Below are positions 9,383 through 42,422 of a stretch of 64,000 nt of DNA, piece after piece (position 1 is the first letter of the stretch; every line of letters begins with the position of its first letter). Source of the DNA: Azolla caroliniana (taxonomy: Eukaryota; Plantae; Polypodiophyta); contig JBHGNT010000014.1 of assembly GCA_043228905.1 (NCBI GenBank), positions 1,054,001 through 1,118,000 of the forward strand, read 5' to 3'. The notes below the pieces were generated by a model. It was not told where the DNA came from. It searched no databases and saw only the letters and a program-made list of their open reading frames with translations. Position numbers and translations under genes: made by a program.

Positions 9383-10740
9383 TTTCACGGACATACCAAG
9401 CACAGACTAAGACGGAGCACGGATGATGAGGCTATGACGAAGCGATGACGGAATGACACAAGAGCATAAAGATAGAGATGAATATTAAGGAGAGAAGATG
9501 GGCGAAATGAGAATACTAGATTGATATGTCCATGACTGGCGTTGTTCACCTTGAATTACTTCAAGGTGAACTCAACTATTTATACTAAGTGGCATGCATA
9601 CTTGTTGCACATATGTGATACAATAGAGCATGTCGGCAGTAGGTACGCATGCATATGCCAAGTGTTAATAATAGAAGGGAGAAATTATGCACATGATGCT
9701 AGCTAAAACCTACAATGAGGAAGTATGTACATGATTATATGCTAGATGTGTGGTTAACACATAACACTCGATTATAACATGGTTATGCCAAGAGTTTAAA
9801 TCTTGACATTATCCCCCCTCCAACGATGCCTTCCCAAATCGTTTGTTGGCTTAAGGGGATATTGTTGATGAAAATCTTAGATCACCTCCAAAGTATTTTG
9901 TAAATCCTAGACAATGAGTAACCCTTCCACAAGACGAGGTATTTAACACCAACGGGCATGAGCGACCATGTGCGGTCCTCACGGGGAGCATGAACACCAA
10001 GGGGCATGAGTAACCATGTGGGGTCCTTGCCGGGAACTGGAACGGTTCTCGTTGAGAGTTGGAACACGAACACCAATAGGCTTGAGCAACCATGTTGACC
10101 TCATCGAGAAATGCAACATGAACGAGTGAGCGACCATGTGGCTCTCACCGGGAACACGAACACGAACGGGAGTAATCGACCATGTGTGGTCCTCATCGGG
10201 AACTGGAACATGAACAACAACGGGCATGAGCGACCATGTCGGTCCTCACCGGGATCTGGAACACGAACGGGAGTGAGCGACCATGCGGCCCTCACCGGGA
10301 ACAGGAACACGAACGGGAGTGAGCGGCCATGTGCGGCCCTCACCGGGAACAGGAACACCAACGGGAGTGAGTGGCCATGTGTGGCCCTCACCGGGAACAG
10401 GAACACGAACGGGCATGAGCGACCATGCGGCCCTCACCGGGAACTTGAACACGAACAGGCGTGAGCGACCATGCGGTCCTCACCAGGAACTCAAACATGA
10501 ACGTGTGTGAGTGACCATGCGGCCCTCACCGGGAACTAGAACACATGTGATACAATAGAGCATGTAGGCAGTAGGTACGCATGCATGTGCCAAGTGTTAA
10601 TAATACAATGGAGAAATTATGCACATGATGCTAGCTAAAACCTACAATGAGGAAGTATATACATGATTATATTCTAGATGTGTGGTTAACACATAACACT
10701 CGATTATAACATGGTTATGCCAAGAGTTAGAATCTTGACA
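9383..10740 (-). mobile_element. Internally deleted chromovirus-like LTR element C nested in pol of B
   Basis: TSD AGATT (9378-9382 / 10741-10745); 3' LTR 9808-9383; partial 5' LTR 10740-~10543; PPT GAGGGGGGATAA; chromodomain-like remnant KYLVLWKGY near 9915-9945. Confidence 0.88.
9945..10543. repeat. Tandem array of 46-48-bp units (about 12 copies)
   Basis: Unit GAGTGAGCGGCCATGTGCGGCCCTCACCGGGAACAGGAACACCAACGG. Confidence 0.92.
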
Positions 10741-12133
10741 AGATTGAGGAATCATCGGACGATAAAGAGAAGAGAGCCGAGATCCGAAGGAAGAAGAGGC
10801 AAGTCAAAAAATTCTTCTTGAAAAATGGATTAATATGGAGGGAGCAATGAAACCGGATAATGTCTGAGTTTCACGAATCTGATTGGGCTGGACATCGAGG
10901 GACATGGGAAACTTTTGTGAAAATCAAACAAAAATATTGGTGGAAGAATATGTAGAAAGATATAGCGGAGTTCATGGAAAGCTGTGAGAAGTGTCAAATC
11001 TACTCCGGAGTTCGACACCGAGATGAGTTACATCCGACATTATCACCAACAATCAACTTCAAATGGATGGTCGACATTGTAGCCATGCCAACCGGGATCG
11101 GACGAAAGAAGTACTTGGTGTTAGCTCGGGAAGATCTCATAAATCAAGTAGAAGGTCGAGCGCTATGAAGGAAAATGTGTTCTGCGGTATGCCAATTTCT
11201 TTTGGAGGAGGAGTTTTGCAGGTACGGGTGCATAGGACAAGTGATTGTGGATCGAGGAGAACTCGACTCTGATAAAGCTAGGGAATTCTTCACCAAACAT
11301 GGAGTTCGGTTAACACTAACAACGACATACAATCCCGAAGCCAACATGAAAATCGAACGAGGACATAGTCCGATCGTCAAAGCACTTGCCAAAGCATGCA
11401 ACGGAAGGGTGATGGATTGGCCGCAGATGCTCTTGTACACACTATGGGTGGATCGGACGACGCATAGCTCCGTAACCGGTTATATGCCGACAGAACTTAT
11501 GACCGGACAAGCACCGATAATGTTGATGGAAACCGCGATCGTGACATGGACAATGCTACCGTGGAAGGAAGAGATGAGTTGGGAAGAACTACTAGCGGTC
11601 TGGATACGACAACTAGAGGGAAGACCGGAAGACATAGCGGAAGCAACACACCGACAACAAGAAGTGCGATTCCGGAACAAAAGCCGGTTCGACACAAAGC
11701 ACTGACTACGACCACGGAAGATTGAAGAAGGAGATTGGGTGATTGTCTATGACAGTAGTTTGGATCATCAACATACAATGATACGGAAGTTCGCAAAAAG
11801 GTGATTTGGGCCATACGAGGTTCGGAAAGTTTTTGACAACAGAACTTACACAATATGCGAGTTGGATGGAACGATACTACGAGTGCCTATAGCAGGGAAA
11901 CGGGTAAAGATCTTCAAGAAGCGGACTGCCGACGAACCCTATGTAACCCTAGACAAGACCGACAACGAGTAGCAACTGGACAAAGATCGCGGTGATGCGA
12001 AAAGCGAAGAAAGTGGACTTCAACTCGTAGTCGACATAAGGGGAGAATCGGAGAGTGCTACGGATGAAGGCGAATAATGAGCATCGGGAACTTCGACACA
12101 TACCGGAGGATGTGCAGGTTTGGAGGGGGCGAG

Positions 12134-12950
12134 TGTCATAGTGTAATTCGCACACTACGTGAAAATTGCATTTTGGTTCCTCCGGATGGGGCAAGGAGGA
12201 CCCGGTAAGGAGACCCGGTAAAAACCGGATCAAGCAGAACCGGCAAGAGCTGGATAAAGAAGGCCGGTGAGAGTCTCTCACCGGATGAAGAGACAAATTT
12301 ATAAATAGAAGAAAAGATTGTTATATCCATAGGACAAGATTCGAACCCTATACCTCCACGTAGACAAACCCCAACCTTACCATTGTACTAACTTATCCTA
12401 AATATTTTAAATATAGATTTAATACTTATAACACCTTTATTTACGCCTACCTTTATTAAAAGGTAAGTCATGCATTTTTAGAATGCGTGAATACTTTATT
12501 TATAAGAAAAATGTATACCAATAAAAAATTACTCGTGCACATCTAGCGAGCATGAGCACTATATTTAGGAAATAAAAGCATAGTGTAAAAGGCAACTCAT
12601 GCACATTTAGTGCGCATGAACACTTTAGAGAAAAGCATGAAACTATGCTTGGCCTCTGCCATCCTTATATAAGGAGGAGAGAAAGATGTATGGGGTTGTT
12701 GATTATTTTACAAGGATTGATCAATCTAATATATTTGTGGGATTCACGAGTTTATCATAAAAATTCTCCTTCTTACAATCTAAATATTGATTAAATACAC
12801 TAAACACGTGGGATTCATAAGTTTTTATTTCTTACTTCTCTTTCTACCTATTCATAACTAGGCTTATATTGTATTCTTCTTTCTCCTAGTCCAAAACCTT
12901 AGTGGTTCCCACCCTACTCACGCAACAATCCGGAACGGAAAGGCACGACA
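12134..12950 (+). repeat. 3' LTR of element B (817 bp)
   Basis: TGTCATAG directly after the PPT; ends GGCACGACA; U5 resembles the other Trp-lineage LTRs. Confidence 0.82.
12330..12400 (-). other. tRNA-like Pol III A/B-box cassette inside the LTR of B
   Basis: TAGGATAAGTTAGTACAATGGTAAG...GGTTCGAATCTTGTCCTA: A box TAGTACAATGG, B box GGTTCGAATC, TAGGATA/TGTCCTA acceptor-like pairing, 71 nt. Confidence 0.65.
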
Positions 12951-14231
12951 ACGTTGTCGGGGCTTGGTGGAACTCATCGGCGAGTTCGTGGTGTCGGGTT
13001 TGTTCAGCAATCAGTTCTTTCTTGAGGAGGTTGTAGGCGGCGGCTTGGCACTCGTTGGTATGGTGGGCGTTCCTCACTTCGGCGGCCAAGACCTCGTTCC
13101 TTGTAGAGGCCTCTCGTTGTTCAGTGGTGGTTTGTTGGGCCTGTGCGTGGACTTGGTGTAGGCGTCAATTCACAACTAAAGTCATCTTGAGGATGTCTGT
13201 CACCATGTCGGCTAAGGGCTTGGTGGTGGTGGAGGGGGTTGGGTTAGGGCAGGCAGTTGTGGTAGTGGATGGGTTAGTGCGGGGAACAGGGGCTAGTAGG
13301 AGTGCTAGTGGGGTGGTCGTCCGGGTGGTATCAGGGGTGGGTTGGGAGGTGACAACCCGGCTTGGAGACATTGGTGGGTTGGGATTCTCAAGAGGAGGAA
13401 GGGGGGTTTCGACCCCTGGGGCGTTGTGGCGGGCTAGCTTATGGGGTCGAGGTTGCAGGGTGTCGTCAGTAGGCATGGGGGGTGGTGGCTGGGTGGTCGT
13501 GCAAGGGGAGGCAAGCGGGGATGCACCGAGGAGAGAGGTTGGCGAGGTGGGGAGGGTAGGGCCACCGGGTTCTGTAGGTCGTGAAGGATTGATTCGGTGG
13601 TGCCGCTGCGAGTACAAGGGGTCGTGGCCATGGTTTGATGGGACACGTAGTGGAATGTGGTAGACAATGCCTGGATTTCTGCAGGGTGAATTCGTGTGTC
13701 TGGAATTCTTTGACGCGATGGGTGATATCCTTAGGTGTATCGAGGGTATCTTTGGCCGTCACATGGGTGATTTGGGGTTGTTTGTGCGCCGGTGGGCATT
13801 CACATTCACCTTGGTGGACTTTCCTTAAGATGTCACGTTCTGGAATGCGGAGACGCTCGGGTTGACCTAATATAGTTATCTTGAGATGTCATTCCTGGCA
13901 GCGTATGAAGGGAGGGGTTGGAGGGCTGATGTTGAATTTTGCGCATAGGTAACGAGTGAGGAACCAAGCAAAATTGGCTACCGATTTGGGTCATGTTTGC
14001 CATCCCCTAACCCGTCGAACGAGTTGGTGGGCCCACTGGACTGGTTGAGGATCGTGTGCCCACTTGAGGAAGTTGTCGGTGATGCGTGTTAGGAAACAAG
14101 TCTCTCCGGATGGGAAGTGAGAAGTACCCGGCAAGAGCCGGATGGTGAAGACCCGGTGAGAACCGGATCAAGAGTACCCGGCAACGGAAAACCCGGTGAG
14201 AACTGGATGAGAAGTACCCGGCAAGAGCCGG

Positions 14232-15515: not shown

Positions 15516-15554
15516 AGGGGGAGTTTGTTAGGAAACAGGTCTCTCCGGATGGGA

Positions 15555-15845
15555 AGTGAGAAGTACCCGGCAAGAGCCGGATGGTGAAGACCCGGTGAGA
15601 ACCGGATGAGAAGTACCCGGCAAGAGCTGGATGGTGAAGACCTGGTGAGAACCGGATCAGGAGTACCCGACAACGGAAGACCCGGTGAGAACCGGATGAG
15701 AAGTACCCGGCAAGAGCCGGATGGTGAAGACCTGATGAGAACCGGATGAAGAGTACCCGATAACGGAAGACCCGGTGAGAATCGGATGACAAGTGCCCGG
15801 CAAGCACCGGATGATGGAGGCCCGGTGAGGAGTGTTCACCGGATG
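15555..15845 (+). repeat. CCGG-rich tandem repeats of about 51 bp in the Copia H U3
   Basis: GAGAAGTACCCGGCAAGAGCCGGATGGTGAAGACCCGGTGAGAACCGGAT, about 5 copies. Confidence 0.88.
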
Positions 15846-16001
15846 AAGGGACATATTCGTAAATATGTTTTTGAGAGCCCATCGGGGCTATATTTGTAAA
15901 TAGCCGAAAAGTCATATTAGTATAAATATGACTTAGGGCAAACAGAGAAAGCGTGTTGTTGTCATTCTTGTTGGCGCAAGACTAGAGAGCGCGTAACAGT
16001 G

Positions 16002-16047
<46 letters not shown>

Positions 16048-18098
16048 GAGGTTGTTGCCTTTGTTGTAACCGCCGCCTGTGGCGAAGATCGTGAGCACGA
16101 GGTCGTTGCCTTCGTGAGCTCACTGTTGTAATCATTGTGATATAGTGATAGTTTGGAGTCTGTGGACTCCCGTGGTTTTTCCCTCTCAGGGTTTTCCACG
16201 TTAAACATCCTGTGTACTCTTCTCTCCTTTGTGTCGTGTTTTTTTTTATTCCCCGTTTTCTGTGTTTGATTCTAAGCTCGGTTGTGGCCGAGCGGTGTTC
16301 ATCGGAGCGTGTAGTTCCTGACAATGCGGGCGATGGCGTCAATGGAGGCGGTGTCACCGATTTGGGCGATGGCACCACAACGAGTGTGGAGGGGATGGGG
16401 GATTTCGGTGAAACGCCAACCTTCGCGTCCGGAATACTCGGTGTAGGTGACGGGGATGATCTGGAGGATGACGCTAGGGGCCTTCTAGTGCGGAAGGGGA
16501 TGCCATCCACTAGCAAATGTAGCGTAGCATAGACGTTGGCAACATTGAATTGGAATTCCACATAGGTGGTATCCGCGAAGGCGTTCTTCCGAACGTGGCC
16601 GGTGTCGAGGTTGTATCCTGTGAGGAATCGGTTGACCAGCTCGGAAAGTACACCCCATGGGCCAATCCCAAGGAAGAACTTGAGGTTGAGTCGGGAAAGG
16701 GTGTCGAAGACGTCAGGCTCGAGGTACTTGAGTTGTCTGGCGGCAGTGGGTACCCAATAGGTACAACGGGTATTGTTGAACTTGACTTGAATTACCAAGG
16801 AGCCACAACCAGCGTCAGGGTAGTATGTGTCGAGGAGTTTGGTGAATGGGGCGAACGCCATCGGGGATAACCTGCTAGGAAAAAGATTAGTATGGCCGTA
16901 AGGGGGTGTACCAATTCTTATACTGCCCTGCCTGTGTCTTCGCGGTAATACTACTAACGGTATTGAATTTACGGGTTGGTGGCTAGGTTGTGTCGGAACC
17001 CTCTCCTCGAACCAGGGGGTTCGAAGGGTACCTCTCTTCGAATTGGGACGGAGTTCAAAGAGGACCTCTCTCTAGAGGGTTTGAAGAGGACCTCTCTCTG
17101 GGTTGAAAGAGAATCGCTCGTCGAACCGGAACGGTGTCGTGAAGATTTTCGGCAACGGGGAGAAAATTGCATGGAATGTACAAAATCGAGTGTGGTTCTT
17201 CACACACAATATGAAACAATAATAGTGAAGATATTGTTTTATATTAGTTTAATATCTTGGTATGAAAAGATGGATGTCTTCAAGAGCTTTCGAATGCATT
17301 TACTTACATGTGAAACAGACAACTTAGTGTCAAGTTATGTGGGTATTAAGTTTGCGAAGAAGAAGAGAAAAAACAAAACTACGAGATATCCCACATAGAC
17401 AAGACAAATAAGGATCCCAGAGTATATAAGTAGGGCCAAAATCTATTGCTTTGTGTTTATGAGTGGATTATATAATGTTCAAGGTGACTTGAGCTAAACT
17501 AATTGGATGAATGGGTGTGGCCTAGCTAATTGTAAAGGTTTTGGCTGGACGGAGCCGACGAGACGACGAGTATTTTGTGTTTTAAAAAGGATGTGAGCAA
17601 GGCTTGAACCTTGCACCTTCAAGATAAGAAACAATATACTTACCACTAAGCCAAGTCATTTCCTTAAAAGCTATATTTTTATCATTATACTTTTACATGG
17701 AAATTCTCATACATGAGAGCTTAGATGATGACATGGAAGGCATGCATTACGTGCATGTCTTGCACCCTCACATGCACCAAATGCATGGGAGCATATATAA
17801 AAGAGTGGAGTAATCAAGCAAATGAAACTATGAAAAATTTGGGAAAAATAAAAAACTTGTAATCCTATTGTTGATGTATCTTCTCTCTTAAATCTAAAAG
17901 TTAAAAGTTCAATCTTTATCTCAATATCTCTCTTTCTTCATATCAATCTCTCTCAATCTCTCTCAATCTATCTTAAATACTTTCTCTCTAAAATTAGTGC
18001 AAACTTTGAATCCTTCTGATCCAGAACCCCAGTGGTTTCGCCTCACGATCCGCACGTAGTGACGGATTTTCGCAACATAATTATGTGGTGAACCCGAC

Positions 18099-19351
18099 GT
18101 GAAAGAGGCGGTAGGAAGGATCAAGTCGAGGATCGACCGATACTTGGAGATGGCGTCCTCAAGCAATCAAGTGGGAGAATTCAAAAGGATGATGCTAATC
18201 GTCGAACAAATGATGAGATCTCGAGACAACGATGCGAGCGTGGAAAAGGCCATAGATCGTGTCGTGGAGCTCGAGGGACAATTTGATGGAAGGAACATTA
18301 CGAAGTTCCTTGATGCATACAAAAGGGAGATGAATCAAAGGGACATGTCCGAAGCACGTCAAATCAAAAGCTTCAAGAGAGTTGTTGCCAACAACATCCA
18401 AAGACGCGTCATCGAGCTTCAAGAAGGCAAGACAACGTGGTCAGAGTTTGAGAGATCAATATTAGCGGAATTCCGGAGTTCTACAACTGCACAAGTCTCC
18501 GGAACTCTGACTCGATCAATTGCACAAGTCTCCAGAATCCTCTGCCATTAATTCTTCCATAGCCACCTTCCATCGAGTCAGAGTTCCGGAGACTTGTGCA
18601 GTTGTAGAAAGCCAACGTGAGACCCAAGAGATGGAAGGTGGTAGTAAGGGGAAGGACCAAGAAGGTGTGCACAACATCGAGGTGAAGATAGATGTGGACG
18701 AATCAATGGTGAATGATGGCAGTGACAAGACTTTTACCCACATTGGTTCTAGAGACTTGGGCAGTTGCGTCCGAGAATCAACAGAAGACCCAAGAGACGG
18801 AATGTGGCAACAAGGGGGAGTTCAAATCTAATGTGAAAGATGACATCAAGTCAAAGGTGTCGAAGGAAATTGACCAAAGACAAACGGATTCCTTCGAACA
18901 TGTTCTAGAGACTTGGGCAGTTGCATTTCAAAGCCAACGTGAGACCCAAGAGACAAAAGATGATGGCGGGGAAGCAAAGGTCCAAGCTGCTGCTAATAAC
19001 GATGTTGGGGAGTGGCTGACAAATACATATGGATCTCTCCACACTCATTCTGGAGACTTGGGCATTAACCGATGTAAGACCCAAGAGAAGGACAATGACG
19101 ACGAAAAAGCAAGGGTTGAAGATTATGTGTGGGAGGAAGAGGTCAAGCAAAGCATAGAGACAAAAGTTGATGCGTACAACAAAGAGTCCGAGCAAAGAAT
19201 GACAAGGGATGACGATGGCCAAGCAAGACATCAGGATCCGAAGGATGTGATCAAAACATCTAGCAAAGACGCTAGTGTGAAGATTTTCAACTCTAACATG
19301 AGATTGTATCATGAAACTCGACAAAGTGAGAAACATAGAGCATGGTCATGA
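18099..19351 (+). pseudogene. Gag N-terminal domain plus repeat tail of E, disrupted
   Basis: AIDRVVELEGQFDGRNITKFLDAYKREM aligns with Gag of A and F; repeated VLETWAVA..Q.ETQE modules. Confidence 0.75.
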
Positions 19352-19427
19352 AAGGATCTCAAATTGGGCATGAATTTGAAGGTACCACATGGGGTAGTCT
19401 ATGTCATTATTCAGATAAAGGCTTGGG

Positions 19428-21295
19428 TGTCACAGACATGACAACAAGTCATGTCAAGATTTGAACTCTTGACCTCTTATATATAGTCAAGTGTTTTCTC
19501 TCATCCTTTGTATCTGTGTATTTGTGTTTCTTCAGAACCTCAACATCTCAATCTCTATGTTTCTTATCAGCCATCTCTTTCTCTACTTCCATCATTGCCA
19601 TGGTCAAAGTCGTTGCTTCCAAAGTCACTTAGTCAAAATCATTGCCTTCTTTGCTTCGTCTTCGACATCATCATCTTCAACCCTCTTGTTGTCGTCATCA
19701 ACACTACTTTGTTTAGCCTTCATTGTTGTCAAGTGTTCCAGTTCCAGGTGAGGACTGTGCAAGGTCGCTCACACATCCGTTGGTGTTCGTGTCTCAGTTG
19801 AAGAAGACCACATATGATCACTCACGCCCATTGGTGTTCACATCTCTGGTGAGGACCGCACAAGGTCTCTCACACTCATTGGTGTTCCCGTTCCCGATGA
19901 GGACCACACATGGTTGCTCACGCCCGTTGGTGTTCCCATTCCTGGTGAGGACCGCACATGGTCGCTCATTTCCGTTGGAATTTGTGTCTCCGGTGAGGAC
20001 CACACATGGTCTCTCACGCCCTTGGTGTTCGTGTCTTTGGTGAGGATCACACATGGTCGCTCACGTCCGTTGGTGTTCCAATCCCCGGTGAGGACCGCAA
20101 ATGGTTGCTCACGTCCGTTGTTGTTCGTGTCTCCGGTGAGGACCGCACATGGTCGCTCACGTCCGTTGGTGTTCGTGTCTCCGGTGAGGACCGCACATGG
20201 TCGCTCACGTCCGTTGGTGTTCGTGTCTCCAGTGAGGACCACACATGGTCGCTCACGCCTGTTGGTGTTCATGTCTCCGGTGAGGACCGCACATGGTCGC
20301 TCACATCCGTTGATGTTCTTGTCTCAGGTGAGGACCGCACATGGTCACTCACGTTGGTGTTCAATCTCCGATGAGGACCGTACATGGTCGCTCATGCCTA
20401 TTGGTGTTCCAGTCTCCGATGAGGACCATACATGGTCACTCGCGTTCACCTGTGCTCCTATTTCTAGTGAGGACTGCTCATGGTCACGTTCTTTGATTTT
20501 CTCATTCAACTCACCCCTACACCATGCTTTCAAAAAGGCAGCCGTAAAGGGGAGGATAATGGCACAGACATGACTTGTTGCTCCTATTTCTAGTGAGGAC
20601 TGCTCATCGTCACGTTCTTTGATTTTCTCTTTCAACTCACCCCTACACCATGCTTTCGAAAAGACGGTCGTAAAGGGGAGGATAATGTCACAGACATGAC
20701 AACAAGTCATGTCAAGATTTGAACTCTTGCCCTCTTACACATAGTCAAGTGTTGTGTTCTAACCAACACGTCCAAATATATTATCATGTTATGTATATCT
20801 TAGTAGATTATCTATTTCAAGTTCTAGGAGTTTTTAGAAAGTTCTAGAACTAGAAGGTTCTAGAGGGTTCTAGAATATTCTCCTGAATATTCTAATGCAT
20901 GTACTTCGACTCATAATATAAATACTTGTAACTTCCTTGGTCCCTTTCAAGGGATTCAACACCAGTCATTGACACATCAATCTAGTATTCTTGTTTAGCC
21001 CCATCTTCTCTCCTTAATTTACATCTCTATCTTTATGCTCTTGTATTTGTTCCTAGTGTCTTAATTTCCTCATCTCATTGATCCCAACTTCCCGAGTTTC
21101 TAGCCTCATTACATCAAGTTCCACGTTCGTAACCTTATCTTTGTCTCCTTGATCTTTATTTTTGTCTTCAAGCCCTCATGTCGCTCACAACATCTAGAGT
21201 TCCTAGCCTCGTCACATCAAGATCCAAACTCATCCGTCGCTCGTAGCCTCATCATCTGTGCTCCGTCCTAGTCCGTGCTTAATGTGTCCGTGACA
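19428..21295 (+). mobile_element. Non-coding LTR element D (related to C) nested in E
   Basis: TSD TTGGG on both sides; 3' LTR 20686-21295; only about 66 bp of 5' LTR; PPT AAAGGGGAGGATAA; LTR end TGTCCGTGACA matches C. Confidence 0.88.
19740..20450. repeat. Tandem array of 48-bp units (about 14 copies), homologous to 9945-10543
   Basis: GGTGAGGACCGCACATGGTCGCTCACGTCCGTTGGTGTTCGTGTCTCC. Confidence 0.93.
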
Positions 21296-24004
21296 TTGGG
21301 GAGAAAAACATAAAACAAAAATGTGTGACAGGTCAAAGTGCCTTGAGAAAGGAGACGATCGGGAAAAAGGTGGAACATGCATAAAGCCTAAACAATTATG
21401 TTCAGAAGGAGAAAAAGGGGCCTTGACAACTGGTCATAGTAAATAAAAGAATGAGCGAATAATATGGTGGATTGGGTGGTGACAATGGTTCGAGTGAAGG
21501 GAATTGACATGCTCAAAAAATAAAAATAAAAATGACGTACTAATCACCGTAGCCAAAATCTCACACTCTCTCTTCTTGGCACCTACCGGAGGACGTATGG
21601 TTTGGTGGGGGTGGATGTCGTGAAGATTTTCGGCAACGGTGAGAAAATTGCATGGAATGTACAAAATCGAGTGTGGTTCTTCACACACAATATGAAACAA
21701 TAATAGTGAAGATATTGTTTTATATTAGTTTTATATCTTGGTATGAAAAGATAGATGTCTTCAAGAGCTTTCGAATGCATTTTACTACATGTGAAACAGA
21801 CAACTTAGTGTCAAGTTATGTGGGTATTAAGTTTGCGAAGAAAAAGAGAAAAAAAACTACGAGATATCCCACATAGACAGGACAAATAAGGATCCCAGAT
21901 TATATAAGCAAGGCCAAATTCTATTACTTTGTGTTTATGAGTGAATTATAGAATGTTTAAGGTGACTTGAGCTAAACTAACCGGATGAATGGGTGTGGCT
22001 TAACTACTTGTAATGGTTTTAGCCAATCGAGACCGGGACCGGATGGCGATGGGCAAGATCGGATTGAACCGGTTAGCACAAACGGATCGGTCGGTTAATC
22101 ACGGTGCATGGTGTTTTGAAGATTTTTGATATAACTACAAGATCAAAAGCCTAGTAGTATTTTGTGTTTTAAAAGGTATATGAGCAAGGCTTGAACCTTA
22201 CACCTCCAAGGTAAGAAGCCATATACTTACGACTAAGCCAAGTCATTTCCTTAGAAGTTAAAGTTTTATCATTATAGTTTTACATGTAAATTCTCATACA
22301 TGAGAGCTTAGATGATGACATGGCAAGCATGCATTTCATGCATTACGTGCATGTCTTGCACCCTCACATGCACCATATGCATGGGGGCATATATAAAAGA
22401 GTGGAGGAATCAAGCAAATGAAACTAATGAAAATTTTGGGAAAAATAAGAAACTTGTAATCCAATTGTTTATGTATCTTCTCTCTTAAATCTAAAAGTTA
22501 AAAGTTCAATCTTTATCTCAATATCTCTCTTTCGTCATATCAATCTCTCTCAATCTATCTTAAATACTTTCTCGCTAAAGTTAGTGCAAACTTTGAATCC
22601 TTCCAGTCCAGGACCCCGGTGGTTCCGCATCATGATCCGCACGTAGTGACAGATCTTCACGACAACGGGGTTTGAAGACGACTGCTCTTTGAACCGGGGG
22701 GTTCAAAGAGGACCTCTCTTCGAACAAGGGGGTTCAAAGAGAACTACACTTCGAACCAGAACGTGGTTCAACGAGTTGGGGTTCGAAGGGGAAAGGAGGC
22801 AAAAGGAAAGAGTTGTGAGGGAGAAAAAGGGGGGGTGGGGAAAGGAAAGCAAAAGAGAGAGAACCCGCCTACCATGCAAAATTATACGTAAAAGAAAGAG
22901 TTGAACCAAAATAGATTGACCACAAGCAAAAATAATCACCCGCGGTGCCCCTAAAATTAAAGGGTAACTCTGAGATTGTAAATACTAATACTTATACTGA
23001 AAAAATGTAAGATTGCGGGCGTGGATTATTGTCGACCGAGCACAATAACAGAGGTCGAGGGAGAAGACGGGTTGAGTAGTTGCTGAGCGAAGTGACATAA
23101 GATAGGGGGAGGGGTTAACAGGGTGTGGGGTGGGCCAAGATTTATATGCGGACGGTAGAGTGGGACAGGAGTCCACCGGGGGTTTCGTGAGGGTTTGGGA
23201 AATTTAGGGGTTTTTGGGAGGAATTGAGGGGGCGGGTGTGGGGGGTGTGTTGTTCGAGTGTTGCCCGAGGATCTTTGTATACCTTTAAGGACCTAGACCC
23301 GTGACATCCTTTCCAAAGGGAAAAGGGGGGCTTGTGAGGTGGTTTCATGGGGCATTTGACCTCCTAGTTGTTGAGTCCGGTCGGGGTCTATGGCCTTAAC
23401 CTGGGCGGGGTATTTAGCCGATGTGTGTAGTTGTCGGGTGTCTCGTACAGTCGTGGTATGGTCGTGGGTGGGAAGTCGGCTTCGTTTCGGGACCCAGAAG
23501 CTAGTGGCACCTTTGTGCCAACCTTGGGCGTTTGTGAGTGTTTTTCTGACTCGCCAAATAGCACGTTCTCCGCGGCGTGGTCCTTCAGCGAAAATCGCGT
23601 GGACGTTCACCCATTTGTGTGGCGGGGTTGTCCTTGTTCTGATGTTGGTGTTTCTCTTAAATTATCATCAAGAAATCTCCAAACTCCTTAAGTGAATTTG
23701 TTTTTACAAATATGCTAAAGTTGCCCATCCATGTTATTTGGAATCATCCAAAGCACATGATTTACAAATCTCTTGGAAATGAGCAAGTCATGAACTCTCA
23801 AAAATAAAAAATAACATTAAGTTCATGAAGAAATAAAATCAAGATCAAATTAGTTTTACAAAAATTAAACCTTTTTACATTAAGTGTGCGAGAGATTAAG
23901 ATGATAATAATAATAATAATACATTCATATCCTTGATTCAAGGTGGAGTGTCTACGATTAATGGCAGTGTTGCCTTGTTTGTTGTAGGTCTCCCATTATC
24001 GCCT

Positions 24005-27300: not shown

Positions 27301-28187
27301 ATAACCAAGGAGTCCCTTTATAATTGAATGATAAGTTGAGAGGGTTTATTCTTTGAAAACCTTTTGTTTTGTTTGAAAACAATACCTAGGTAGAGGGTGT
27401 AATCTCAATTTTCTTAGATATTCTAAAATCGTCTTGATTACATTGCGTCATATTGCAATGATAAGATACATAATGAAATAGAGGAAGGCAAGGAATCACA
27501 TTAGTATGACCGTCCTTGGCTTTTATAGAGTCATTTCTGATGTAAATAGGTTAACCCATTTGGTTTGTCGTCGACAAAACAAAAGGTGAAGTAATCACGT
27601 AATGTGTCTTGTAGAGAGCGGATGCAAACAAAGTCTTGAAACAATTTCCAAAATGCTGGCCTTTTCTCATCCCAAAGGATGGCTACTAAGAAAACATATC
27701 ATGTGCCATGTTCAATAAAATGAGACTTCAGATTGCTAAAGTCACTTACTTTTTGCATGATATTGTGATCATAAAATTCCGATTGTTCAAAAGTATAGAC
27801 TAATAGTTCTCTTTTCTGTTCTTGCAAGTGCACACAACATGTTAAAATTACATGAATCCCATGTTGTGGGTTAGGATAGTACAACACGACGAATGAGGTT
27901 TTAGACATGTTTCCACTACTAATATCCATTGTGCACAATGCGAAGACACTCATGAAACATATACATGTTATGTACAATGCCAAGTAAGCTGATAAGTTAC
28001 ATGCCCTCATAGAGGGCGAATTTTTGTTCTAAATCTTGCAGATTTCGCATTTACATGCCTTTGATTTAGTTCATTTCAACCTTGCATGTTTTCCGTTTGT
28101 GCATCTTCGGTTAACATCAAAACCTAGTTGCATGTATTTTTCTTTGCCAGATTCGCTTCTCTTTTACAGGCTATCACATTTATTGAA

Positions 28188-28206
28188 ATACATACATGCA
28201 TATACA

Positions 28207-28257
<51 letters not shown>
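28188..28257. repeat. (TACA)n(TA)n microsatellite upstream of the host-like gene
   Basis: Direct reading. Confidence 0.9.
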
Positions 28258-28258
<1 letters not shown>

Positions 28259-28691
28259 CGATTTACTTGATTTCAATCTTGGAACTTTTTTCGTTTATGT
28301 ATTGTTCACCCAACAATGTCAAGCCAAATTGCATGTCATATTTCATTCTTCGCAAGCATCAATACTTCCCCTTTCATGTCACGTCATATCACATCGATAC
28401 CCGACAACCTTCTCCACAGACAACATCATCGTGCATCCTCGCATTGGGTGTCAGACCCTCGACACAAGCAAAAAGCAAAAAGCAAAAAGCAAAAACAAAA
28501 CGCAAAAGTCAAAAGCAAAAAGCAACAAATCTTGTTCCATGTCTTGGGAGCATTGGGGAAAACAATAAGAAGCAGGGCAAATTCTGTTCATTTCATTTCT
28601 CCATGGCTGGGAAAACACAGAAAATTCCCCTGCTTCAATCCGAGAAACCCTAATCCCAAAACCTTTGATCCAGAAAACCCTGACTCCTCAA

Positions 28692-29669
28692 ATGCAGAGA
28701 TCCATGCCCCCAAAACTTTCCTTCTTTTCCACCCATTCAGACGCCAGGCTGAAGAGGGTCACCTGTGAAACCCTAAATTCAGTGGACTGGTATAGCAGAA
28801 GAACCTACAATGGAGCAGAGAGCTATCGCTATTACAGTAGTGATGAAGAGGTGGATCAATGGCAAGGAGCACCTCCAACAGAAGAAGAAAGGGAAGAAGA
28901 AGAAGACGAAGGAGGCCAAGCTACTTATGACTCTGATTCTGAGAGTGGTCAAGGTCAAGGTCAAGGCCAGAGTTTTCTCCAAGGTCAAGGACAACGCCAT
29001 GGTCAAGGACAATGTCAAGGTCAAGGTCAATGGTATGCCAATTATCATAGTTTTTGTAGAAATAGTTATTGTCACACTTACCGTCAATGGCGAGGTCAAG
29101 GTCAAGGTCAAGGTCAAGGTCAATATCGTGGTCAAGGCTATGGGCATGTCCACCACCTTGTTCGAGCCAAGATAAGAGGAGAGGACAAAAGGGAGATGAA
29201 CACTAGGCCATGGCTTCATGATGATAATGGCAATGATAGTGCTATGTCTCTCCCCTGGCACCATCACATCAGCAAGCGAATGCCTATTATGTCAAGCCGA
29301 GGTCACAAACTAGAGATGAGTTGCGCCAGGAAAGAGATGCTCGCCCGCCCGATAACTTTGTTAACACATTTTGCACCTAACACCACACAAATTAGTGGGC
29401 ATTCCTCGTCCTATGGTAGCACCCTCGTGATGCCCCCGTTTGTCACTAGAGCAACAAATGTGATGATGTCACCCCGTCGGCATCGATATGATGCCATGAT
29501 CTTTCGTGATCAGATCAAACATGGTAGATTCATGCCTGCCTCTAGCTATGATGAGCCGTGTTCGCCTCAAGTGACATGTTTTGGGAAGGTTAAAGTCAAG
29601 GAGAGATATCATAAAAAACTCGGAAAAATTGCTTGTGTTACAAGAGGCCAATTTTTTGCCCTTCCTTGA
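28692..29669 (+). CDS. Probable host gene: single-exon uncharacterised protein with an acidic tract, GQ repeats and a C-terminal EPxSPxVTCxGxV motif
   Basis: About 325 open codons in AT-rich non-TE DNA; EPCSPQVTCFGKVKVK resembles the plant EP(T/S)SPKV(T/S)CxGQV motif; first ATG at 28692. Confidence 0.65.
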   Translation: MQRSMPPKLSFFSTHSDARLKRVTCETLNSVDWYSRRTYNGAESYRYYSSDEEVDQWQGAPPTEEEREEEEDEGGQATYDSDSESGQGQGQGQSFLQGQGQRHGQGQCQGQGQWYANYHSFCRNSYCHTYRQWRGQGQGQGQGQYRGQGYGHVHHLVRAKIRGEDKREMNTRPWLHDDNGNDSAMSLPWHHHISKRMPIMSSRGHKLEMSCARKEMLARPITLLTHFAPNTTQISGHSSSYGSTLVMPPFVTRATNVMMSPRRHRYDAMIFRDQIKHGRFMPASSYDEPCSPQVTCFGKVKVKERYHKKLGKIACVTRGQFFALP

Positions 29670-36233: not shown

Positions 36234-36443
36234 GGTTGTAGATAGACCAAGCGGGGAAAGGAGTGGCTATGGAGGGGAGAGGGAGACGAAACCACCAAGA
36301 ACGATTTGGGCACACCCGAATCGTAGACATAACTTGGTGTAAGCGAGGATTAGAAGAGATAGGGGGAGGGGAGAGGGAGATGAGGAATCAAACACTAATA
36401 ATAAACTCTACATAAGATTAAGGATTAAAACATACCCATAAGC

Positions 36444-36480
<37 letters not shown>

Positions 36481-37690
36481 AAAGCAAAACTAATATTCAT
36501 TAAGAGAGGGTTTACAATGAGATAGGGGAAATGAGAATGGCCACGAGCAAACTAGTTTCGCTCCCTACGGGGCTCATTAGTGCTAAAATGATTATTAGGG
36601 GTGGATAGGTTTATATAAGGAGTTTTAGGAGAGGCTTTAGAGAAATGACAATAGGGAGTGGGGGTGTGTGCTTATGGATATGATTGAAAAGGGGAAGATT
36701 TGGAGAAGAAGGGGGTGGATTTTATGGGCTTTAATGTGATCAGAGGGAGGATGTGCAACAAACCCATAAGATTGTAAGGCACATGGGAACACATAGTGGG
36801 TTATATAGATAGGTAAATAGATAGATGTTTTTAGTGTCCATAGAGAAGCCAATATTGACCCATGGGACCTAAGCACAAACGTTATCTTGATGTGTGTATC
36901 CTTCATAAAAAGGGACATTCATACTTTGAAGCACCAAGTCTCAATGTGTGAATAAAGCATACCCAAATGAGTTCAACCTTCTAGGTGTTCTCTTTAGTGT
37001 GGCACTCAAGTCATCACCCTCGCTTAATATATCATCATAGCTTTCACAAATTGCACTATATGTAGAGCATGTAAAAAGCAAGTGATACTCATGGTCTACT
37101 AACCCTTCCTTGCATACCTAACACGCCTTTATGTTTGGCTGACTTTGATTCCATAATGCCACTTCAATACTAGGTCGAGAGCCTTAGGATGGAACTAGCT
37201 ACTATCATCAACATGGGACTCTCAATAAAATTATTGAGACTCTCAATGGGGCAAAAATGTTAAGGTCATGGGCATTTGAGCTAATTTTAGTGGTTTCCAA
37301 GGTACGACAAAAGGGAGATTGGTTATGATAGGACAAGTCACACATGACAATCTGAGAGCGTAAGGAGTTCAACTATAAAATAAGATTGGCTACACCCTGG
37401 ACATGACATCTTGGAGACATTGTGGATACTTTTTATGTGAGGCAAAGCTTTTGTGCTTTCACTTGTATAATTTAAGGCTATATTCGGTGGTATGGGATGC
37501 CAATGGGTTTTATACTTATATCTTTTTCTTTGCTCAAAAGTGGTGGTTATGGCTAAGCGCAATCCATTTTTCATTAATTTCTTATCATTAAATATAATGT
37601 CATAATATTTGATATTAGAGAAAAGGACACAAAACGAAAAGAGCATCCCATTAAGTTCGTCCTATATCACTAAATATAGCCATATATATT

Positions 37691-38521
37691 ATACCTTGGG
37701 TCTAAACATGAGAGATTTACTTCATCCACAAAGAGTGAACAATTTCTTTGACGTGTTGTGTTGAAGGCGATGATTAATTCTCTTTATATAACTAAACTTT
37801 GAGGCTCCAATCCACCACATGTCCTAGAAGAGTCAATTCCCACTTATCTTACTCTTAAAACCTTTACAATTAGGCTTTAAAATTGTTTCATAAAGCTATG
37901 CTTGTGGCAAATATCCATCATGCTCACACATGTCTACCAATCTGGCACATGAAATGTACATACTATATGTCTATAAAATATGTGCATGCATACTAGTACA
38001 ATTATTGTAATTACTCAAATGTCATATAATAATACTAAAGTAAGTCAAAATACCTTGGGTCTAAAACATGAGAGATTTACCTCATTGACAAAGAGTGAAC
38101 AATTTCTTTGGCGTGTTGTGTTGAAGGCGATGATTAGTCCTCTTTATATAACAACTCTGAGGTTCCAATCCACCACATGTCCTAGAAGAGTCAATTCCCA
38201 CTTATCTTACTCTTAGAACCTTTACAATTAGGCTTTAAAATTGTTTCATAAAGCTAAACTAAACTCTAAGGCTCCAATCCACCACACGTCCTAGAAGAGT
38301 CAATTCCCACTTATCTTACTCGTAGAACCTTTACAATTAGGCTTTAAAATTGTTTCATAAAGCTATGCTTGTGACAAATATCCATCATGCTCAAACATGT
38401 CTACCAATCTAGCACATGAAATATACATACTATATGTCTATAAAATATGGGCATGCATACTAGTACAATTATTGTAATTGCTCAAATGCCATATAATAAT
38501 AATAATAAAGTAGGTCAAAAT
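37691..38521. repeat. Tandem duplication of about 360 bp; the second copy has an extra internal duplication of about 115 bp
   Basis: ATACCTTGGGTCTAAA at 37691 and 38050; TCCAATCCACCACAYGTCCTAGAAGAG occurs three times. Confidence 0.88.
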
Positions 38522-40499
38522 ATTACAATTTTCTAATGTTAAGCATTTTCCTATTGAGAATAAAAACACGACTACTTAATAGGTCATTTCTTATAGGAAT
38601 TTGTACATATGAGTTTAATGAAAATAAAATTGAGGGATGCAATTTGTTTAATTTTCGACCTTGTCAAATGTGTACTTTTTTTCCAAGATGTTGAAAAAAT
38701 GGATGGCAAGATTGTCCCTAAGGACCCTACATATGCTTGTGATTGGATGGCATGATGGGGTTGTCCATTCTTAGTTTCTCAACATTGATTTGTATCAGTT
38801 CTATAGTGATGATCTTTATTAGTAAAAAGAAGCTTTCGGTGATATCAATGTCTAACTGCGTTCAAAGCTTGCTAGTTGTGTCTTGAGGCTTGTTGAAAAA
38901 TAACAGGTTTTGTTAGGCAGACATTTGTTGTTATGTGGATAGTGATTGCCCCACCTTTCTTTATCTAAGGTCACAAACAATAGCCAAATCTAAATGAAAG
39001 CAACATGTAAATAATCGAGTATCTATAGATACTTAAGCGTGTACATAGATTGATTCACCTAACTGATGGGAAGCAGTTTCCTCTTGGAAAATAAAGAATG
39101 AAAAATTTCCCTCATTTATCTCTAAAAAGATTCTCTCTACAAATACAATTTCCCTCTCTAGAGTATAGGTTGTGCTTTATGGTTACATGTTCAACCGAGT
39201 TCATTCATTAGATTTCAATGCGATAACAACCCAAAGCAAGCGTTTTGAATGGCACAATGGTTTGCTATAATTCCACTCCTAAATTCCTAAAACACAACAA
39301 AAGTTTACTATTAGATTTGTGTGGGAGTGAGGAATCACAAAATAGAAGCACAAACAAGAGTGACGAAGTAGATCACACGAAGAAGAAGAAAGAGGATAGT
39401 CGGAAGAGATCTTTATTCACTATGATGAACAACGTTTTTGTAAGTATGAGTGAAGCGAGAGCTATATATGAAATAATGAAACCGTAACTTCCATGAGTAT
39501 TATGTACTACCACATATATGAGTATATCATATACTTGTGGTTACATGGGAAAAAACCTCTAGCCAGCTCTAGAGTAAAAAGTACCCATGTATAGGGAAAT
39601 GCTTCACATCAAAGTTATTCGAGGGACACATAAGTGTAACAAAATCTTTGTGTAACTTCAAATAGTTGGTGCTACACCGAGTATACGTGTAAAACTTGGC
39701 TAGAGTTATGCCTTCTCTTCCAAAGTTGTATGGAAGACTAGATCAATGCCTCTCCTTATTGTTGGAAAGATGGGTAAGAGTGATCACCAATGGCTCTTAT
39801 GCTATGCATGAATGTGTGAATGATTTGAACAAAACCCTCACTTTCTCAACAAACTAGCTTCTTAATTAAGGACGGATGGTGCTAGAGCTCTACCCACCCC
39901 ATCATATCCACTATTGTTTGACTACTCTAGATATTGGGTGATGTGTTTTACCTGGAGAATGAGAAATGGGTTCTTGTTTGATGGATTTCATGGGGGCATC
40001 ACAACGATTCCCTAGGTTGAAAGTAAAGTCAATTTGGCAAATTTCACAAATATGTTGTATGGGGATGTTGTTTGAAGACGAGGTAGATTTATGTCATCTA
40101 GTATTAGAACACTTGAGAAGATTTACCTTGGCATATCACTATTAATGAAGTAGTGGTGATAGGAAGGGTTGTATTATCATCTTGTTTTAATAATAAACAT
40201 AGATTTACGAAAATAAAAAGGGAGAGTATATTATAGTCCTTGGAGGTCAAGTAACTAATGGAACCAAAAGTGAAATATTTTTATATAGCACGTGTAGGAT
40301 TGAGTAGTGATTCTCGATGTTTAAGAGTTGTAATAAATTATAATAAATATTGTCATGAACATGTGTGAAAATGAGAGCAGGGCCACTTGAAGCTGTGCAT
40401 GCAATTCAATACATGTATGCTCTTGATTATCATGTGTCTCAGTATAATAAAATAAAATAAAATTTGCACTTCTTGTCACAGTCGTGAATGTATGTGTAT

Positions 40500-40874
40500 C
40501 ATAGTTGTTAAAAAACACGTATTCTACGTTTTAGAACTGTCGTTTTTAAAAATTTGACGTATTCAACGTATTTAACAAGTATTTATCATTTCAAAAAATA
40601 TTTTCTTATTTTGAAAAAAAAACTTTAAATTTAAGAAGTATTTAACGTATTTTACAAATATTCTACATGTATTCTAAGTATTCTAAACGTATTCTACATG
40701 TATTCTAAGTATTCTAAACGTATTCTACATGTATTCTAAGTATTTAACGTATTTAACGTACTTTATCTATAAAATACGTATTCTAAGTATTTAAAAAAAT
40801 AAAGTTAGAATACTTGTAGAATACTTAGAATACGTATTGTACGCGTATTTTTTGCTAAGTATTTTACAACAATG
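40500..40874. mobile_element. hAT-type MITE (375 bp)
   Basis: 8-bp TSD ATGTGTAT; imperfect TIRs CATAGTTGTTAAAA / TTTTACAACAATG; internal GTATTCTA repeats in both orientations. Confidence 0.82.
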
Positions 40875-41059
40875 ATGTGTATGCATGGGTGAGTACACAT
40901 GTGTTTGTAAATATGAACTTGTATGTGTATTTGTGTGAAGGAGTGTGAAAAAATGTATATTTATGCATAAGTGTAGTTATAAGAATGGTTATGCACATGT
41001 GTAAATGTGTGTAGGTGCAAATGTGTATGTGTATTTTTGGAAGTGTGCATAGATGTGAG

Positions 41060-42422
41060 TCTCTAAGGGGTTCAATGCGATTCTAACGGTGGTCAATCGA
41101 TACACGAAGATGGCTCATTTCTTGCCATGTACTAAGGAGATCTCCAGTGAAGACACTGCCGAAATTGTCATGCGTGAAGTATGTCGGCATCATGGACTTC
41201 CCGATAGTATCATCAGCGACCGTGGACCCCAGTTCGTGTCAAAATTCTAGAAGCACCTTTTTAACATGCTCAAGGTCTCTTGTAACCTCTCCTCCGGCTA
41301 CCACCCACAAACCGACGGCCAAGCTGAACGAACAAATCAAACGCTGGAGCAGTATCTGCGGTGCTTTCTCAGTTATCATCAGGACGACTGGGCAGATATT
41401 CTCCACTTCGCCGAATTTGCCTATAACAACTCTATCCACACATCCACTAAAGTTACGCCATTTTATGCTTATATGGGATGTCATCCCCGGTGGAGTGTAC
41501 TTGAAACCCCAGAGGTGTCCACAAATCCGTGCGCGGAGGATCGTTTGGAGCGGTTACGCAAGATACAAGCGGATTTATCTACTCATCTCCAGCAAGCTCA
41601 ACAAACACACAAGGTCTACGCGGATCGTCATCGACTTCCATCCAGTTTTAATATTGGAGATCGAGTGTGGCTGCTACGACGACACATCAAGACTACTCAC
41701 CCATGTGAGAAGTTGGATTATCGGCGATTAGGTCCTTTTCGTATTTTCTGACAGATTAATGATGTCGCTTTTCATCTCGATCTACCTCCTCAACTTCGGA
41801 TACATCCAGTGTTTCATAGTTCTCTCCTTGAACCCTACCACGAGAGCACCATCCCAGGACGTCTTATCCAACCTCCACCCCCGATCGAGCTTGAAGATGG
41901 GCCGGAGTACGAGGTTGCCGCCATCCTTGATTCCAAGATTGTTCGCAACAAGCTCTACTATCTAGTCGATTGGCTAGGCTATAGTCCCAACGAACGTACT
42001 TGGGAACCGATCGAGAATGTGACCAATGCTCGTGCTCTTCTTGAAGACTTCCATCGTCAATATCCACACAAACCGGGTCCTCAATCCAAGACGACTCGTG
42101 ACACTAGTCGTTTTAAAGGGGGGATAGTGTCATGATATGGCAAGACTCGAACCCATGACCTTAGGTTATATGGGTCGAGCTCTTTACCATTAGACCATCT
42201 ATTGGAATACGTAGGATATTATTTTCATTTACATTTTATTATAGGAAATTAGTGTATATTCCAGATTTCTCTGGGACATTCTAGAAGCTTCAAGATTACT
42301 CCTGAAAACACTATAAAAGAGGGCACTAGGCATTATGTTGAACCAAATTGGTTCAACGCCAGTCTTAAGCCTTTTAGCCACCATTGTATATTCTCTTCAT
42401 ATAATACATATCTTTCTTATCA

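Follow-up and report, generated by a model that had tools for sequence, protein, structure and literature searches.

Candidate tRNA-type Pol III units lie antisense in the U3 of long LTR elements of Azolla caroliniana

Host elements of the units

The window analysed comprises 64,000 nt of contig JBHGNT010000014.1 and contains five elements, termed B, E, L, D and C, whose unit-bearing LTRs span 426-1049 nt. B is a decayed non-chromovirus Gypsy element with an internal part (6382-12133) that displays 49-61% amino-acid identity to element A, and a 3' LTR at 12134-12950 on the forward strand, with a TATA box at 12666. E is a non-autonomous derivative of 5.5 kb that retains a gag fragment; its 5' LTR (17135-18077, forward strand, TATA box at 17794) and 3' LTR (21616-22664, forward strand) have diverged by 8%, while its primer-binding site (PBS; 18086-18103) is common to elements A and M. 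L is a Tcn1-like chromovirus, an assignment made on its domains, with an integrase and a chromodomain (41087-42126) upstream of a 3' LTR at 42128-42588 (forward strand, TATA box at 42312). The chromodomain matches Chromo (PF00385) with an E value of 3.7e-15 and displays the aromatic-cage residues; the relative P0002, at 85% identity, carries RT, RNase H, integrase and chromodomain. D is a non-coding element of 1868 bp (19428-21295) located inside E and flanked by a 5-bp target-site duplication, with a 3' LTR at 20686-21295 (forward strand, TATA box at 20917). C, also non-coding (1358 bp, 9383-10740), lies inside B with a 5-bp target-site duplication and has its 3' LTR on the minus strand (9808-9383, TATA box at 9584). 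Both D and C have a truncated 5' LTR and internal parts built of 46-48 nt tandem arrays, in which neither pol nor PBS was seen. The original prediction of five Gypsy elements was thus too broad, since Gypsy pol is present in B and L only.

Position and layout of the units

Eight unit sites were located, all in U3 and all antisense relative to PPT, PBS or pol. The B unit (12312-12397, minus strand), with an A box from 12390, a B box ending at 12337 and a T4 run from 12315, is a predicted Pol III unit of ~83 nt. In the 5' LTR of E, the unit E5 (17584-17660, minus strand) comprises an A box at 17653-17643, a B box at 17609-17599 and a T5 run at 17588-17584, measuring ~73 nt up to the T run, while E3, its counterpart in the 3' LTR (22171-22247, minus strand), carries a copy-specific A-box change at 22231. 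The L unit (42141-42204, minus strand) occupies the left end of its LTR and is predicted to form a single long hairpin (z = -4.0). The D unit (20713-20781, minus strand) is located 25-89 nt inside the LTR, and D's truncated 5' LTR holds an eighth site that had escaped earlier notice, a half unit restricted to the B-box half (19452-19497, minus strand). The two C units lie on the forward strand, one at the end of its 3' LTR with a degenerate B box (9736-9808) and the other in the truncated 5' LTR (10668-10740; LTR 10740-10541). Coordinates, strands and motifs originally given for seven units all read as written with one exception: the motif quoted for E is found in its first copy, but the second (22240-22187) has lost one A-box G. 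This G, at 22231, is kept by the E family (93-99% of depth in 4/4 runs); D has similarly lost the tRNA-type variable-loop letter at 20730, which the family majority holds (98-100% of depth), so that in both cases the family restores the tRNA-type letter from which the window copy departs.

Measured from start to start, the A and B boxes are separated by 43-49 nt. In 5/5 families the A box is positioned upstream of the LTR TATA box, by 115, 141, 143, 159 or 276 nt, and points away from it. A run of at least four T lies 12-22 nt downstream of the B, E5 and E3 units, and the T4-T5 runs of B and E are 73-83 nt from the tRNA-equivalent start, which is the distance found in tRNA genes. In D and C the run is 53-180 nt downstream; within 50 nt, T4 runs are absent from L, C and D, and L lacks one up to 200 nt. 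The predicted antisense bias is observed in 5/5 families, although these represent only ~3 independent lineages (B/E, C/D and L) and the strand bias is therefore not significant on its own. L025 and L101 may hold similar units in a putative sense orientation. A unit is absent from 8 of the 13 LTRs scored, including that of A, which belongs to B's lineage, and those of H and M, the two youngest elements, each with an identical LTR pair.

Recognisability and folding

The window was scanned with a generic A/B-box consensus, taken from general knowledge and not fitted to the units, with a gap of 28-45 nt. E5, L and B took the first three ranks over the two strands (2 mismatches each), and each scored above 150/150 dinucleotide shuffles of its own LTR. 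The expected excess of box pairs over shuffled LTRs thus holds for B, E and L and is marginal for D (P = 0.027), while C by itself does not exceed chance (P = 0.15), its candidate unit being identifiable solely by its relationship to D. Searching with a profile of 105 unrelated tRNAs, mostly bacterial, placed L (E 0.0024), B (0.17) and two D sites (0.82 and 0.85) in the top five; E3 ranked 12th, with E5 and C outside the top 25. When the profile was built from four outside units belonging to other families, the top four sites were L, E5, E3 and B (E 1e-4 to 0.04). A motif combining the B box with CTTG has 8 matches in the window against 1.33 expected, 8/8 in unit LTRs and antisense, a count that is partly circular because the motif was derived from the units; no free-standing copy was found outside LTRs in the window.

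ARAGORN returned 0 tRNA genes at default settings, and at relaxed settings 248 calls (-ps70) or 391 lines (-ps60) without usable scores, which are uninformative. The Rfam tRNA model gave no match for the B or L stretch at E values up to 10, and on the whole window Rfam produced low-complexity matches only, below gathering scores. The 7-bp acceptor-like stem proposed for B corresponds to a real helix, to which the minimum-energy fold (z = -0.2) assigns 9 bp, but it is out of tRNA register, using the 3' strand of the T stem, and the acceptor pairs 2/7 in register. With acceptor pairs of 2-4/7 and T-stem pairs of 3-4/5 in register, together with the empty ARAGORN result, a tRNA gene or fresh pseudogene was rejected. 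Fold and register tests likewise rejected a tRNA mimic in the sense of a folded cloverleaf.

Conservation and origin

Contigs from four runs, representing four organisms (367, 481, 138 and 169 contigs), were aligned on E5, a position being scored as variable at a change of 15% or more; this comparison was not built on the unit search pattern. The boxes are completely constant (0/11 A-box and 0/11 B-box positions variable), in contrast with 9/19 spacer positions (0/22 vs 9/19, Fisher p = 2.6e-4) and 9/25 in the first 25 nt upstream, in agreement with the prediction that boxes would be more constant than spacer. The boxes are not the sole constant part of E, because the upstream block 17680-17709 is equally invariant (0/30), contigs having been placed at 80% likeness, which favours matching ones and can overstate the constancy of blocks that are shared. 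In the variable loop and T-stem 2/25 positions vary, one of them private to the window copy, and this constancy exceeds the need of box binding.

B, E5 and the outside units L065 and L048 have equal spacer length, with a spacer identity of 38% and a flank identity of 35-36%; since the search pattern forces box identity, only spacer, spacing and context count for L065 and L048. L065 also preserves the terminus of B's LTR (84% over 38 nt). In other samples, related LTRs retain the unit with different spacers. The A box is conserved to the same degree as the B box. The spacer of L-type units does not vary freely, presenting 83% identity among three close copies. In the read sets of organisms C and D (distinct from the elements so named), the B-box half is ~20x deeper than E's own upstream flank (~29,600 and 23,000 vs ~1,400 and 1,000, respectively), and loose contig ends at the B-box half are similar to the flank of L048, which belongs to a different LTR family. 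Viral contigs contained 0 matches to the unit pattern. A protein-based search for relatives gave one 22-residue match in viral contigs, one Tcn1-like fragment (L153, 48% identical) without a unit in 232 nt of LTR-side sequence, and nothing for A's integrase.

The unit behaves as a recurrent part of the LTR, occurring family-wide in four organisms, and not as a copy-specific SINE: none of the 7/7 full units has a target-site duplication above chance, the longest flanking direct repeats being of 6-8 nt (chance 0.14-0.96). An A6 run is found downstream at 1/7 units, within host pol sequence. Insertion of a tRNA-derived SINE was rejected on the lack of a duplication or tail above chance and of copies outside LTRs; an ancient SINE insertion with eroded marks may nevertheless be the origin of the unit.

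Comparison with known LTR Pol III modules

Known LTR modules of this kind (Cassandra, Helenus and Ajax) are explained as the promoter of a miniature element. Kojima (2024; PMC10886601) describes Helenus/TRIMp3 as having tRNA-derived LTR sequence that is conserved around boxes A and B, is not a working tRNA and probably originated from a SINE; one plant family is known, from Selaginella, with a 120-bp LTR. The Helenus units are proposed there to serve as promoters for elements of 311-1263 bp, and it is argued that autonomous partners should lack such LTR sequence. The same text notes that part of a tRNA is found in 'not a few LTRs' of Repbase, the non-TRIM cases being left there without description. 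The likeness to Helenus, namely tRNA-derived A and B boxes within an LTR, is clear for B, E and L and weak for C and D. Orientation differs: Helenus units are sense, as judged by the PBS/PPT strand in the examples examined, with two B-box words occurring 206 times forward vs 13 reverse in the supplement, whereas the units described here are antisense at 8/8 sites and cannot make genomic RNA. Helenus, as there described, is a short non-coding TRIM with two LTRs, a PBS and a PPT, in contrast with B and L, which carry pol, with the 5.5-kb E and with the long, TATA-bearing LTRs found here; C and D, although non-coding, show truncated 5' LTRs and no visible PBS. Among the hosts of the present units are coding Gypsy elements from two lineages that are far apart. 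Membership of Helenus/TRIMp3 was rejected on size, coding content and orientation. Cassandra and Ajax TRIMs are, in that account, 5S-derived rather than of tRNA type and are non-coding miniatures, the Cassandra promoter starting the element's own RNA.

Foamy viruses, according to Kincaid et al. (2014; PMC3993851), offer a coding retroelement whose LTR holds Pol III genes with A and B boxes and T terminators, separate from the Pol II promoter. They differ in being retroviruses with tested miRNA products from stem-loop miRNA genes, while the units described here have a predicted tRNA gene layout and no common precursor fold. The original statement that no description was known is overstated, given the tRNA-derived LTR modules of Helenus/TRIMp3 and the retroviral LTR genes of foamy viruses. 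For Gypsy or moss LTRs, no published account of a tRNA-derived unit in antisense was found, in a search with partial coverage of subscription papers and Repbase; the accessible parts of PMC3601003 and PMC7175516 contain nothing on such units. What appears new, judged from sequence, is a candidate tRNA-type Pol III module lying antisense in U3, in LTR elements that are long, have a TATA box and in part carry coding sequence.

Candidate roles of the units

As the E boxes are constant while the spacer changes, the unit likely recruits Pol III factors. An antisense U3 module in long, TATA-bearing, partly coding elements cannot be the element promoter, and the E boxes look selected, which suggests that transposons employ the Pol III machinery for a further purpose. 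Our preferred reading, held tentatively and falling somewhat short of probable, is that the units are selected, divergent mini Pol III genes that act as a chromatin boundary. The antisense A and B boxes stand head-to-head with the LTR TATA box; bound TFIIIC and TFIIIB would hold the LTR open at its outer edge, and this open edge would protect the Pol II promoter of the element against silencing spreading in from the flanks. The backward orientation would send Pol III away from the Pol II promoter and would leave only the complement in genomic RNA, without a tRNA-like fold for tRNA-processing nucleases. The module is optional, close relatives being without it and single copies decaying after insertion. 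In yeasts, tRNA genes occupied by TFIIIC serve as chromatin barriers; the proposed action is the same, exerted there by host loci and here by a sequence that the transposon carries. A boundary of this type would constitute a cis-acting, protein-free defence against silencing, and abundant LTRs would scatter TFIIIC sites and outward promoters genome-wide.

It is possible, though rather doubtful, that unrelated LTR lineages (non-chromovirus Gypsy, a Tcn1-like chromovirus and non-coding dependants) repeatedly acquired or exchanged this portable, outward mini Pol III gene, placed at the U3 edge, as a self-carried insulator against silencing by the host. With each insertion the host genome would then gain a TFIIIC site and an outward promoter, and the tandem units of seed-plant-type LTRs (L025, L101) would turn this into a general plant LTR strategy.

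Alternatively, the unit could matter for the RNA it makes, tuning element or host through small or antisense RNAs, which we consider unlikely. B and E would give RNAs of ~75-85 nt ending in a hairpin, as their T runs at tRNA-gene distance would allow, while L, C and D, having no near terminator, would read outward from a 5' or solo LTR, or antisense into the element from a 3' LTR. A 9-pair hairpin over the B box of five B/E-type units pairs in 45/45 cells on the unit strand, compared with 7/35 cells broken on the opposite strand; the L unit folds well, as does L090 (z = -2.6), and the Pol III genes of foamy-virus LTRs provide a precedent (PMC3993851). Against an RNA product, the predicted stem covariation across copies did not reach significance in these five sequences, two of them from one element (72/500 shuffles attain it, with one compensatory change). 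The three L-type copies display 0 compensatory changes, T-stem covariation is not clear in either register across 14 units, and no fold recurs from one lineage to another.

About equally unlikely is that the units are roleless passengers, descended from SINE heads or tRNA pseudogenes that entered ancestral U3 regions on one or a few occasions and have been copied along ever since. Absence from 8/13 LTRs, decay in E3, C and D's 5' LTR, and the presence of the motif in SINE-like and other repeat contexts among 20 non-tRNA loci are consistent with passengers, as is the SINE insertion that Kojima proposes for Helenus (PMC10886601). Neutral decay, however, does not predict constant boxes beside a variable E spacer, nor a spacer length that stays fixed despite near-random spacer identity, and the 7/7 full units lack both a target-site duplication above chance and a free-standing copy in the window.

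A role in reverse transcription is distinctly improbable: the complement of the unit, in the 3' U3 of genomic RNA, would base-pair with the primer tRNA at its D and T arms and so connect the two ends. Such bridging would directly explain antisense orientation and U3 position, and the constant parts are indeed D arm, variable loop and T arm. tRNA-like sequence is present in the U3-R of HIV-1. In Ty3, according to PMC5371799, the T and D arms of the primer pair with U3, the U3 boxes matching the element's own primer. The PBS of E, A and M fixes the last 18 bases of the primer and, by pairing, its T-stem, but agreement of the B and E units with the implied sequence is limited to 1-2/5 at positions 49-53 and 3-7/15 at positions 59-73; a Ty3-type split primer-binding site was rejected on this mismatch, for which the T arm only was compared. 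Unlike the Ty3 case, the units occur also in the Tcn1-like L, of a clade mostly predicted to self-prime without a tRNA (PMC6317226). When 15 PBS bases were used to look for the primer tRNA gene, 31 viral loci matched, 0 of them with a tRNA-Trp call.

That the units are chance resemblances picked by eye is scarcely credible, for although the shuffle values of C and D and the silence of the Rfam tRNA model and ARAGORN would fit it, the 150/150 shuffles surpassed by B, E and L and the first four ranks of L, E5, E3 and B with the outside-unit profile already refute it for B, E and L.

Nested retrotransposons of the window

The window consists of nested LTR retrotransposons in which both Gypsy and Copia domains were identified by Pfam, and its elements were mapped from their termini, polypurine tracts, primer-binding sites (PBS) and target-site duplications. 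Element B, a decayed Gypsy on the plus strand with its 3′ LTR at 12134-12950, is interrupted by A (minus strand, ending at 6381), to which the principal parts of its pol and gag are 49-61% identical, and encloses C (9383-10740, minus strand), a non-coding tandem-array element. E (17135-22664, plus strand) retains a gag fragment only, has the same PBS as A and M, and contains a second non-coding tandem-array element, D (19428-21295, plus strand). Both C and D have truncated 5′ LTRs, and their internal regions, 9941-10544 and 19733-20485, are related arrays of 46-48 nt repeats with 70-83% identity. L, also on the plus strand, has its terminal LTR at 42128-42588, while F, H and O are Copia elements and M, N (Gypsy) and Q complete the map. 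One element terminates in a chromodomain with aromatic-cage residues (Pfam). DUF4100 is a Physcomitrella family. Among plants, Tcn1 elements of this kind are placed only in mosses and club-mosses by Neumann et al. (PMC6317226), and on this distribution a moss was taken as the probable host.

Detection and layout of the tRNA-like units

All tRNA-gene-like units quoted in the original prediction were found in the window. Their assignment to five Gypsy elements holds for L and for B, a Gypsy if a decayed one, but not as such for E, with its gag fragment, nor for the non-coding C and D. With a generic A/B-box consensus, the units of L, of B and of the 5′ LTR of E (E5) are the top three sites on both window strands. 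Each of these three outscores 150/150 shuffles of its own LTR, with P = 0.027 for D and P = 0.15 for C, so that the expected excess of box pairs over shuffled LTRs is borne out for B, E5 and L, is marginal for D and fails for C. C, with 5 mismatches to the consensus, is counted as a carrier solely on the strength of 71% identity between its first 80 nt and the unit of D. The unit is thus present in five of the 13 LTRs scored (ends approximate for two of them), and in the remaining eight no site on either strand has fewer than 5 mismatches. A profile of 105 tRNAs, none matching the unit pattern, placed L, B and two D sites within the top five and missed E5 and C, while a profile built from four outside units of other families ranked L, E5, the unit of the 3′ LTR of E (E3) and B first. 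A B-box-plus-CTTG word, itself derived from the units, occurs eight times in the window (expected 1.33), always in unit LTRs and always antisense; the eighth occurrence falls in the truncated 5′ LTR of D and belongs to a half unit.

The unit lies in U3 in 5/5 families, with its A box 115-276 nt upstream of the TATA box and facing away from it, and the A and B boxes are separated by 43-49 nt from start to start. T4-T5 runs are located 83 nt (B) and 73 nt (E) from the tRNA-equivalent start; none was found nearby in L, C or D. The antisense orientation was observed in all five families but, as these represent about three lineages, the bias is only suggestive.

The units are not tRNA genes, since ARAGORN calls none and the Rfam tRNA model misses B and L. 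Neither do they form a tRNA cloverleaf, only 2-4 of 7 acceptor pairs being formed in the tRNA register, and the acceptor-like stem previously claimed for B proved to be out of that register. No fold common to the unit lineages was found. The possibility that the units are copy-specific SINE insertions was also considered, and no marks of recent SINE insertion were found at them.

Constancy of the boxes in family E

Contigs from four runs representing four organisms (2,910-8,916 placed per run) cover the LTRs carrying the D and E3 units. At positions 22231 and 20730, among the 40 of 444 variant rows listed, the window copies deviate from the tRNA pattern, whereas most family members carry the base expected of a tRNA. 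When contigs of the same runs were placed on the 150 nt surrounding E5, variants at 15% or more occupied 20 positions, in a complete list of 25 rows. As predicted, the boxes of E are more conserved than the spacer, with variable positions numbering 0/11 in the A box, 0/11 in the B box and 9/19 in the spacer (Fisher p = 2.6e-4 for boxes versus spacer, with the caveats that neighbouring letters do not vary independently and that dissimilar contigs are clipped, which favours matching blocks). This test covers E alone, the three L-type copies being too similar for boxes and spacer to be separated. Nine of the next 25 upstream bases are variable. Two further constant stretches weigh against selection specific to the boxes: the variable loop and T stem of E, and the block at 17680-17709 described below.

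In two of the organisms, C and D (unrelated to the elements so named), the B-box half is covered ~20 times more deeply than the upstream flank of E, although depth does not equal copy number, and loose ends there look like the flank of L048, an outside locus with an E-like terminus. The block is thus common to other LTR families. The spacers of B, E5, L048 and a B-like outside locus, L065, are equal in length and 38% identical. A retained type-2 Pol III promoter would account for A and B boxes that stay constant around a spacer free in sequence but fixed in length, and the B/E lineage probably carries a real, selected tRNA-derived promoter module.

None of the 30 positions at 17680-17709, ~20-50 nt upstream of the unit of E, is variable at 15% in the four organisms. 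This block contains a TATA-like word, at the distance seen in plant tRNA genes, and could be part of a Pol III or Pol II promoter.

Related units outside the window

A metagenome scan with the unit pattern identified at least 120 loci; the total is estimated at 5,700. An ARAGORN tRNA underlies the match in 100 of the 120 loci listed, and four of the other 20 are LTRs of the kinds found in the window. L036 and L090 match the left end of L at 88-92%, L065 matches the left end of B, and L048 has an E-like terminus, from which its orientation is inferred; in 4/4 the unit is near the matched LTR end and points outward. The remaining listed non-tRNA loci comprise three within another long repeat (L025, L087, L101), four in AT-rich repeats (including a near-identical pair), seven that look SINE-like or are unplaced, and two that resemble bacterial tRNAs, either truncated or atypical.

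At L022:153-208, L024:3993-4048, L096 and L081, comparable tRNA-like units sit in AT-rich repeats that have inverted-repeat arms but show no sign of an LTR. The LTR-like long repeat (L101:121-348, L025:1329-3557) holds two tandem tRNA-like units on the same strand, the first decayed in L025. It resembles seed-plant Tekay/Del LTRs, by whose layout its units are probably sense; neither PBS nor polypurine tract is present. L090:235-360 is a mini element of 126 bp, bounded by TG...CA and flanked by a 5-bp target-site duplication, that consists of the unit of L together with a second, inverted A-box arm. It matches in size the LTR of Helenus, a miniature LTR element, and could be a donor to, or a derivative of, the LTR end of L.

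Possible functions of the units

The units are a real feature; selection on them is supported in one family, and any function is putative. Because it faces backward, the unit cannot produce genomic RNA. Its most likely use, advanced tentatively, is as a putative mini gene, divergent from the TATA box, that would bind factors able to keep the LTR edge open and form a barrier, for which a precedent exists in yeasts. It seems unlikely that the unit is kept for its RNA product: the B-box hairpin, paired in 45/45 cells on the unit strand versus 28/35 on the opposite strand, is a weak hint in that direction, but its covariation was matched by 72/500 shuffles. A neutral passenger, equally unlikely, would account for the patchy distribution of the unit, which A and the youngest elements, H and M, lack, but not for the box-versus-spacer contrast. 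A primer bridge like that of Ty3 (PMC5371799) would explain the orientation but is improbable: the units do not match the primer T arm deduced from the PBS, and the clade of L is mostly predicted to be self-priming (PMC6317226).

The closest known kind is Helenus (TRIMp3; PMC10886601), which shares the same raw material, a tRNA-derived sequence in the LTR, but has the opposite orientation and miniature, non-coding hosts; size and orientation thus rule out membership for the window elements. The role proposed there for the Helenus unit is making the genomic RNA of the element, and Kojima also mentions unnamed non-TRIM LTRs holding tRNA parts. In the portion of its supplement retrieved, B-box words number 206 forward versus 13 reverse; four reverse passages, among those listed, adjoined sense units, and the supplement may hold antisense cases. 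Pol III genes are also present in foamy-virus LTRs, where they were tested (PMC3993851). Within the literature searched, which lacks most subscription papers, no account of antisense units in LTRs of Gypsy elements or of mosses was found.

Other features of the window

M (47809-52182) is a young element with identical 652-nt LTRs and the PBS of A and E. It carries one ORF of 1018 aa, gag-like at its start but without a Pfam match, and has neither pol nor unit. Q (55036-55723), solo-LTR-like and without a unit, lies inside N and shares its 3′ end with the LTRs of A and M (79%). A tandem CCGG-rich block adjoining the outer side of the unit of B is common to the LTRs of B (12196-12307) and F (15751-15865), with 75% identity, and may reflect U3 exchange between the Gypsy and Copia superfamilies. 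Outside the mapped elements, an open frame of 366 aa at 28569-29669 contains Gly/Gln-rich repeats and matches no Pfam family. AT-rich DNA at 37691-38522 contains recent local duplications of 100-260 nt with 92-96% identity.
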